Assembly (NCBI RefSeq): GCF_003334305.1
Contig: NZ_QOWS01000055.1
DNA from: Escherichia coli
Lineage (GTDB): Bacteria > Pseudomonadota > Gammaproteobacteria > Enterobacterales > Enterobacteriaceae
DNA: 2,411 nt
Direction: 5' to 3' (one strand)
The notes below the pieces were generated by a model that worked only from the letters and a program-made list of their open reading frames with translations, did not search any database and was not told where the DNA came from. Positions 1,033 through 2,380 of the stretch are shown here, piece after piece (position 1 is the first letter of the stretch; every line of letters starts with the position of its first letter). The position numbers were made by a program, and so were the translations under genes.

Positions 1033-2020
1033 CTTACTGAAAAAACACCGTACTCTTGTTAAACATCGTCGGATTGGACTGATTACGTTGCACTTTCATC
1101 ACATATTCCAGTTTATCAATTTGGCTTATCATCTACTCCAGACGCTGGTCATCATTGACCAATAGTCTGATATGGCTTTTGTCGCGGTCCTGAATCGGCA
1201 GGCAGAAAATGACTTCAACGTTAAAAGGGCGACGGGAAAAAGCCCACAAAGGTGAGTCATTACGCCCGGATAATAAACAGGCTCCTCCCTGTTATGGAAT
1301 CCGTTGTATTGTCCATAATGTCTGGGTTTTTAATGCACACTGGATAACAACCGGACGAATCTTCAAATATCACTGGTGCTGACAGCCGGTTTGAATTCAT
1401 CTCACAACCCTGTATAGAGCGAATCTCCTGCCTGCGCGTCACTCCACTCCATGGTATCAACTTCACACTCTTTATCTGCGGCTAGTTTCAGTCACCAGAT
1501 AAGCATCGACTATGAAAGGTGAGCCATGACAACATAACGTTGGTAACGCTCTGATGCCTTAACGGAAGATGCCTGCCACCACAGGGAATGTAAACGACTG
1601 AAGTGTGGCCTTTAATGCCGTGAACGGCTCATGGTCTCCTGGCACGGTTGCCGCCCCAACCTGTAACAACATTCCACAGTACAATGTCTGTCAGAGCCGG
1701 AGCCTCCCATGCCTGTTGTAGTAACTCTACCAGTTACGAACATCCTTCCTCAAAAGTGTTGTCGTATCTCGCATGGAAGAAAAGATCCTGACTAAGCAGC
1801 AACACACAACGTATTGCGGAACCTGCATGTTTTTCCTGTAACTAGTGTATTACGACATATGGTAATAGCTACCTGTGTGGTTTCGCTGGATAACAAGGGG
1901 ATTTATTCGCAAGTAAAATGCCTGATAAAATACACGAATCTAGTAATCATCAATATTTACTCTGGTCGAATGAAGTGTGAAGTGGATTGCCAGCAGATGC
2001 GGCCAGTGATCCACCGCCTG

Positions 2021-2048
2021 CTTAACAAAACGCCGGATTTCCCCCGGC
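2021..2048 (-). terminator. Candidate Rho-independent terminator for a minus-strand transcript
   Basis: Perfect all-GC 5-bp stem GCCGG (2032..2036) / CCGGC (2044..2048) with a 7-nt loop. On the minus strand this hairpin is followed directly by GTTTTGTTAAG (reverse complement of 2021..2031), a U-rich tail. On the + strand no T-run follows it directly. Confidence 0.3.
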
Positions 2049-2352
2049 TCTGAAAGTAAGGCTTCGGTTATTTGCACTATTTTATCTCTGTTGAATTTGG
2101 TTAAGTCGGTGCAGACTCATCAACACAAGTACGGTTCGATGCAAACAGCTGTGACTGGCAATATGAAAGGAATGATGAATCAGTCAGGATGACAAAGTGC
2201 CGGCTGACCGGAGGGGACGCAGGAAGATTCACGGGGGGACCAGCACCAGGGAACAGCGCCACATCCCGGGTGGTACTGCTTTGATGCGCCCGGTGACACA
2301 AAGCCCGGATTGTTCCAGACATCCTGAATTAAACTGTAGTGGCACACTAAAT

Positions 2353-2380
2353 TTGGCCACCTGATGAAAGGTGATATTCT
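2353..2380 (+). promoter_or_regulatory. Putative sigma70 promoter for the downstream gene
   Basis: -35-like TTGGCC (2353..2358), 16-nt spacer, then an extended -10-like TGaTATTCT (2372..2380). This would place the transcription start about 20 nt upstream of ATG 2407. Weak consensus matches, hand-assigned. Confidence 0.25.

Follow-up and report, generated by a model that had tools for sequence, protein, structure and literature searches.

Recurrence of a Shine-Dalgarno-like word in an Escherichia coli genomic island: probable coincidence among three sequences of different origin

A word resembling a Shine-Dalgarno (SD) sequence stands at three places in a 2,411-nt stretch of Escherichia coli DNA (the window), twice as the 11-mer ATGAAAGGTGA and once more as its last eight letters, AAAGGTGA. 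We conclude with high confidence that this recurrence is a coincidence among three sequences of different origin, without a common function. A fairly common purine-rich 8-mer would have landed in three unrelated pieces of island DNA. The copy at 1248 is the antisense of a dead, truncated copy of ilvN, in which two substitutions relative to the functional gene made the word. The copy at 1512 lies in decayed, unannotated island DNA as the rarer allele of a G/A polymorphism, and the copy at 2364 at the left end of a mobile ISEc31-like element of the IS3 family that inserted at 2335 in just a few strains. Functional sequence holds only the third copy, and its role there is something other than ribosome binding. 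An earlier note on this DNA had offered three readings of the repeat, as pairing partners of an anti-SD sequence, as remnants of duplicated gene starts, or as chance; it is the last of these that the evidence supports.

Results

Frequency of the word in the window

The 11-mer ATGAAAGGTGA occurs exactly at 1512-1522 and 2364-2374, both times on the plus strand and both times where it had been reported, and a search of either strand of the window found no further copy. The 8-mer AAAGGTGA is present on the plus strand at 1248-1255, 1515-1522 and 2367-2374. The first of these sites had been placed at 1249..1256; the site exists, one base to the left of that position.

Taken as one pre-specified word, the 8-mer is enriched. 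It was observed three times against 0.10 expected from shuffles, and its rough background in 0.98 Mb of other gammaproteobacterial loci (0.066 per kb of duplex, about twice the uniform expectation) gives a lambda of 0.16 for the window and a P of about 6e-4, uncorrected for the choice of word. This single-word enrichment, three copies where 0.1-0.16 are expected, counts against coincidence, as does the fact that all three copies of AAAGGTGA share one strand. The word had been selected after the sequence was inspected, which made a look-elsewhere test necessary, and we used 1000 shuffles of the window that preserve dinucleotides. A repeated 11-mer appeared at least once in 48% of these shuffles, and in 57% some 8-mer stood at three places or more; the longest direct repeat per shuffle was usually 10-11 nt. 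The window itself holds a second exact repeated 11-mer, CTGGATAACAA (1340-1350 and 1886-1896), and a second triple 8-mer, ATGAAAGG (1512, 2163 and 2364), both consistent with chance expectation. Because the word was picked post hoc and shuffles give such repeats often, the recurrence of ATGAAAGGTGA/AAAGGTGA is real, yet not above chance for a 2.4-kb sequence.

Features of the window

E. coli strain A7 (NZ_CP028767.1) carries the window at 100% identity, and over 1,100 further E. coli chromosomes share most of it. A DeoR-family regulator gene at 250-1032 on the plus strand, placed by the RefSeq annotation of the identical strain A7 and by the list of open reading frames, is divergent from an operon of ribokinase, fucose-type permease and aldose epimerase genes. 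The regulator and the ribokinase-type operon resemble the deoxyribose (deoK) island of pathogenic E. coli and may belong to it.

About 1 kb without an intact gene separates the ilvN pseudogene described below from the IS3-family transposase coding sequence. The earlier description of the area as a region without genes holds for the remainder of this DNA and fails for three parts of it: the ilvN pseudogene (1034-1271), a decayed gene remnant at 1703-2252 on the minus strand, and the insertion sequence (IS) that begins at 2335. The remnant derives from a UCP030791-family "putative phage-derived protein" gene and matches intact copies in other islands at about 69% DNA identity; the intact gene in locus L004 encodes 182 aa, and in other strains a 45-aa fragment at 1940-2077 is annotated "putative phage-derived protein". 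An Rfam scan of the whole window gave no match at E up to 1, and ten short ORFs from the interval 1209-2386, compared with NCBIfam, matched no family. A simple promoter scan called two unrelated promoter-like sites, at background frequency.

The copy at 1248 is antisense to an ilvN pseudogene

The 8-mer at 1248-1255 (plus strand) is the antisense of the pseudogene codons (a)CT CAC CTT T, Thr-His-Leu. The pseudogene, a 5'-truncated and disrupted gene for the small subunit of acetolactate synthase I, occupies 1034-1271 on the minus strand (annotated by PGAP as a pseudogene at 1034-1260), and its DNA is 89% identical to K-12 ilvN over 1034-1271. It matches PDB IlvN residues 30-98 (E 1e-29) and contains an in-frame stop. 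The fragment covers IlvN residues 18-96, and a frameshift precedes residues 18-29. In a tblastn search with K-12 IlvN, HPGVMTHVCGLF was aligned to the pseudogene translation at 1272-1237, and the word is the reverse complement of the Thr-His-Leu codons in the motif GVMTH(V/L)CGLF.

At the corresponding site functional K-12 ilvN reads AAACGTGG and lacks AAAGGTGA; therefore two substitutions produced the word at 1248. In APEC O2-211 the site reads AAGGGTGA, and the word is mutated. The copy thus sits in a paralogous fragment of the gene for the acetohydroxy acid synthase I small subunit. Unlike functional ilvN, this fragment is a pseudogene, truncated at its 5' end, frameshifted and interrupted by an internal stop, and the word is on its non-coding strand.

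The ilvN fragment lies directly downstream of the DeoR-type regulator and is not accompanied by ilvB, an odd passenger of the island that over 1,000 genomes keep in pseudogene form. A terminator-like stem with a T-run (CTCACCTTTGTGGG CTTTTTCC) at 1243-1256 on the minus strand overlaps the copy at 1248; inside the coding sequence of a pseudogene, it is probably fortuitous. Terminator-like sites in the scan region 1200-2500 number 4, with 1.3 expected.

The copy at 1512 is a minority allele in decayed island DNA

The 11-mer at 1512-1522 (plus strand) lies in unannotated, decayed island DNA. The stretch at 1272-1700 (about 430 bp) occurs in approximately 1,600 E. coli genomes, in islands only, at 92-100% identity, and no record among the 1,600+ genomes has an annotated feature over it, the 1512 copy included. 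Two related strains carry ATGAAAGATGA (G1519A) at this site. A 40-mer with G1519A was found exactly in 1089 records and the 40-mer with the window allele in 485, of 1564 E. coli records with the locus. The allele in the window is the minority one, with about 70% of the 1,564 locus records reading ATGAAAGATGA, and the GGTGA core is missing in about 70% of genomes. RNA folding around 1512 was like that of shuffles (z = -0.07).

Decayed ilvB was considered as an identity for 1272-1700, on account of IlvB-like motifs read in the minus-strand frames, and found no support: tblastn and blastn with K-12 IlvB and ilvB gave noise only. Minus-strand frames 0 and 1 (two of the three) were searched against PDB sequences and matched IlvN alone, with no IlvB, and comparison with K-12 ilvB found no ilvB homology adjoining the ilvN pseudogene.

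The copy at 2364 belongs to an ISEc31-like insertion sequence

The second 11-mer, an exact match at 2364-2374 (plus strand), corresponds to nt 30-40 of an ISEc31-like IS3-family element whose left end occupies 2335-2411 on the plus strand, with its left inverted repeat (IRL, TGTAGTGGCACACTAAATTTGGCCAC...), leader and orfA start. In strain A7 the element is 1258 bp long, running from window position 2335 (TGTAGTGG...) to ...CCACTACA; it is 92.5% identical to ISEc31 and is found in 2416 of 5426 E. coli genomes. Its terminal inverted repeats are imperfect, with TG...CA ends, the left reading TGTAGTGGCACACTAAATTTGGCCAC and the right being the reverse complement of ...GTGGCCAATATTACTTGACCACTACA. 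RefSeq annotates a coding sequence, "IS3 family transposase, programmed frameshift", in two joined pieces from 2407 in strain A7, and the N-terminus of OrfA aligns with IS911-type OrfA in the family. The element resembles the IS911/ISEc31 group in its IRL and IRR, which share TGTAGTGG...TTGGCCAC, in its orfA/orfB organization and in the annotated programmed frameshift. Furthermore its leader aligns base for base with IS911-type leaders (...CCTGAACAGAGGTGATATGCTCACCTC...ACAGGTGC...ATG) from Salmonella, Lonsdalea and others.

In nearly all other island-bearing genomes the match to the window ends at 2334 and is followed by different DNA (YagK/YfjJ-type genes); therefore the sequence from 2335 onward is an insertion specific to a few strains. 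Other copies of the element are flanked by 3-bp target duplications (ATA in locus L129, GTT in locus L131). A duplication is absent at the copy in locus L130 and at the window copy, which has AAC on the left and CTT on the right (window 2335 and L001 9592-9595). Because the duplication is missing and the right flank differs from that of other strains, the data suggest that the site was rearranged after insertion, either by a deletion that the IS mediated or by two IS copies recombining. To the right of the element in strain A7 is a module with DUF932, antirestriction, RadC and YeeU/CbtA genes; in other strains YagK/YfjJ genes and IS100 are found after 2334.

A family set was collected with an IRL-core scan that used nt 5-26 only and one genome per species. 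The scan found left ends in many gammaproteobacteria as well as in some betaproteobacteria; 80 were unique, and 24 diverse ones, each with an intact orfA, were aligned. Outside the search pattern, C27, T28, T38, G39, T41, A42 and T46 are invariant in the 24 left ends; the orfA ATG is likewise invariant, and the SD bases A63, G64, G65, T66 and G67 are invariant or nearly so. The ATG at IS nt 30, with which the 11-mer begins, occurs in the window lineage only and is missing in 23 of 23 other aligned members. At the position of the word ISEc31 and its nearest relatives read ATTAAAGGTGA and IS911-type elements AACAGAGGTGA, and in contrast to the rest of the IS911/ISEc31 group the window lineage alone has the exact 11-mer. 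C27 and T28, invariant in the IRL, are not common to the IRR. The IRL core contains an internal inverted repeat, GTGGC...GCCAC (nt 5-9 and 22-26, within window 2339-2360), which falls inside the collection pattern, and its conservation is therefore not informative.

Common origin and small proteins as explanations of the 11-mers

Two identical 11-mers, each opening with ATG and going on to GGTGA, could be remnants of a duplication, whether of a gene start, a solo IS end or a small repeat family. We consider this highly improbable. Local alignment of 1470-1600 to 2335-2411 gives nothing better than the 11-mer itself. A profile built from the 24 IS left ends and run with nhmmer matches the window at 2335-2410 only (E 2e-22), without a hit near 1512 up to E 100; together the alignment and the profile rule out a solo IS end at 1512. 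The window holds no family of direct repeats, the IS did not have the ATG ancestrally (relatives carry ATT or other bases), and the word at 1512 is a derived or minority allele. The duplicated gene starts that had been proposed are excluded at the sensitivity of these comparisons, since similarity ends with the 11-mer and the 23 other family members lack the ATG.

The words might instead function in ribosome binding or begin small proteins that escaped annotation. The strong SD-like core GGTGA and the ATG-initiated frames would suit this explanation, and the tiny frames beginning MKG that had been described do exist, MKGEP* from 1512 and a frame of 12 codons from 2364. Each ATG, however, falls within the SD-like core or precedes it, so that neither has an SD sequence upstream, and the frames are just 5 and 12 codons long. 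G1519A alters the first frame in about 70% of genomes; the ATG of the second is missing from ISEc31 and from 23 other family members, where indels vary the length of the leader and rule out a conserved frame.

Considered as SD sequences, the three copies fare as follows. The one at 1248 has just a 31-aa GTG frame that overlaps the word and no conserved ORF 4-10 nt downstream, and the one at 1515 has a 3-codon frame only. The one at 2367 abuts the GTG at IS nt 37. In some genomes (loci L129 136-1349 and L130 136-1349) RefSeq begins the transposase coding sequence at this GTG; in strain A7 it begins at the ATG at IS nt 73. In 14 of the 24 members the 12-codon extension from the GTG is in another frame or is interrupted by stops, and for this reason the alignment favours the ATG at nt 73 as the likelier transposase start. 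Overall, we find it very hard to credit the words with a role in starting small proteins.

A predicted resident promoter overlaps the copy at 2364

The pattern TGnTAnnnT is invariant at IS nt 38-46 (T38 G39 n T41 A42 nnn T46), although it lies outside the pattern with which the 24 left ends were collected. In the window it reads TGaTATTCT (2372-2380, plus strand), and from its conservation we infer that it is the extended -10 of a resident, pIRL-like promoter. The predicted -35, TTGGCC (2353-2358, plus strand), matches 4/6 of TTGACA and is 16 nt from the -10; it is inside the family search pattern, and its conservation is not informative. The word at 2364-2374 forms the last 11 nt of the 16-nt spacer of the predicted promoter, and its final TGA is the TGn of the predicted extended -10. 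A simple sigma-70 scan did not call this promoter, which scored 8 of 12 with a threshold of 9. Transcription would start near IS nt 53 (window position about 2387), downstream of the word, and with such a start the native orfA mRNA would be without it.

In elements of the IS3 family a weak resident promoter lies at the inner IRL edge (PMC3299598, PMC3219604). IS2 has a pIRL of the extended -10 type next to a sequence that OrfA binds (PMC3299598), and IS911 also has a pIRL (PMC2909936). The predicted promoter is like the IS2 pIRL in being of the TGn-TAnnnT type at the inner IRL edge; IS2 differs in belonging to another subgroup with a different sequence, and the promoter in the window is predicted from conservation.

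The GGTGA of the 2364 copy (2370-2374) also belongs, as the left arm, to an inverted repeat on either side of the -10, GGTGA-N5-TCACC. The right arm, TCACC at 2380-2384 (plus strand), is complementary to GGTGA at both 2370-2374 and 2398-2402. This inverted repeat has probably been maintained across the IS911/ISEc31 group, and it may act as a DNA operator (for example for OrfA) or as an RNA hairpin. Leaders of the group contain four conserved words, CACCT-N6-AGGTG-N8/9-CACCT-N11/13-AGGTG (window 2358-2402, IS nt 24-68), of which the middle pair flanks the invariant TGnTAnnnT and the last is the SD.

Pairing around the orfA Shine-Dalgarno sequence

From the family alignment the SD of orfA is AGGTGA at 2397-2402 (plus strand), with the ATG at 2407 being the start of the coding sequence in strain A7. 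The earlier note had suggested folding the word against this ribosome-binding site. Such pairing is impossible, as both contain GGTGA; the two can merely compete for partners.

The IS copy has the sequence of the SD core and is the complement of two CACC(T) words close by. These properties speak against coincidence and leave room for an alternative in which the leader is an RNA switch in long transcripts and the motif, in the IS copy only, would serve as an anti-anti-SD. The words of the switch would be A (CACCT, 2358-2362), B (AGGTG, 2369-2373), C (TCACC, 2380-2384) and D (AGGTGA, 2397-2402). Pairing of A with B and of C with D would hide the SD, and pairing of B with C would free it. The long transcripts would come from outside read-through or from a circle-junction promoter. 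In the 24-sequence alignment each of the pairings A.B, C.D and B.C is possible in 86-94% of cells, and for the 90-nt leader A.B and C.D are found in the MFE structure, B.C in the centroid. There are 2 compensatory cells and several G-U cells in B.C, its percentage paired is reached by only 5 of 500 shuffles, and elements from Shewanella change both of its arms jointly (GAAATG ... CATTC).

Other observations speak against a switch. The pairability comes almost wholly from sequence conservation, the RNAalifold covariation term being 0.01, and C.D and A.B show 0 compensatory cells. In the Shewanella elements B and C change while A and D stay, so that A.B and C.D break. The fold of the 90-nt leader is ordinary (z = -1.37, with 19 of 200 shuffles folding as well), and a 66-nt leader shows no excess stability over shuffles (z = -0.61). 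Moreover the resident start near nt 53 would be downstream of A, B and C, and arms that bracket a -10 hexamer suit an operator at the DNA level equally well. We therefore regard a switch as unlikely, and an RNA role of the IS copy in long transcripts as a small possibility.

In the leaders of IS10 and IS50, fold-back inhibition hides the SD. Leader hairpins that hide an SD are known in other insertion sequences as well, such as IS200 (PMC4513863), and this precedent favours a switch. As in the left-end hairpin of IS200, where the SD is sequestered, the TCACC in the window is complementary to the SD, 13 nt upstream of it. The element in the window differs from SD-sequestering leaders in that its family shows no covariation between anti-SD and SD, its resident transcript would be without the upstream words, and the nearer hairpin, B.C, exposes the SD and does not hide it. 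A second GGTGA in the leader could also compete for TCACC.

The suggestion that the copies are anti-anti-SD partners is sterically possible for the IS copy only, and covariation lends it no support. An SD switch could not involve the copies at 1248 and 1512 because the IS is a late arrival and both copies are polymorphic, and a joint SD-related role of all three copies, with the IS recent and absent from this site in most genomes that have the island, is likewise excluded. Were the switch real, translation of orfA would be regulated differently between long transcripts and the short resident ones, and the copies at 1248 and 1512 would still be coincidences.

Discussion

Based on our results, the recurrence of ATGAAAGGTGA and AAAGGTGA is best explained as coincidence. 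The earlier note had named a motif frequency at chance level, together with copies that are not conserved across related strains, as the outcome that would speak against a meaning of the repeat, and this is what was found. In related strains the copies at 1248 and 1512 are polymorphic and the IS with the copy at 2364 is mostly absent from this site.

The analysis removes a false lead, as the shared word marks no regulatory system, no repeat family and no hidden small genes. It also yields a map of the window, in which a DeoR-type regulator is followed by an ilvN pseudogene, a decayed phage-like remnant and an ISEc31-like element at 2335. For the IS911/ISEc31 group, the conserved TGnTAnnnT and the inverted repeat around it in the leaders are an element of a known kind. 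Their conservation gives comparative support to a resident promoter of the extended -10 type in this group, and the conserved inverted repeat that flanks the -10 is a candidate operator or RNA element.
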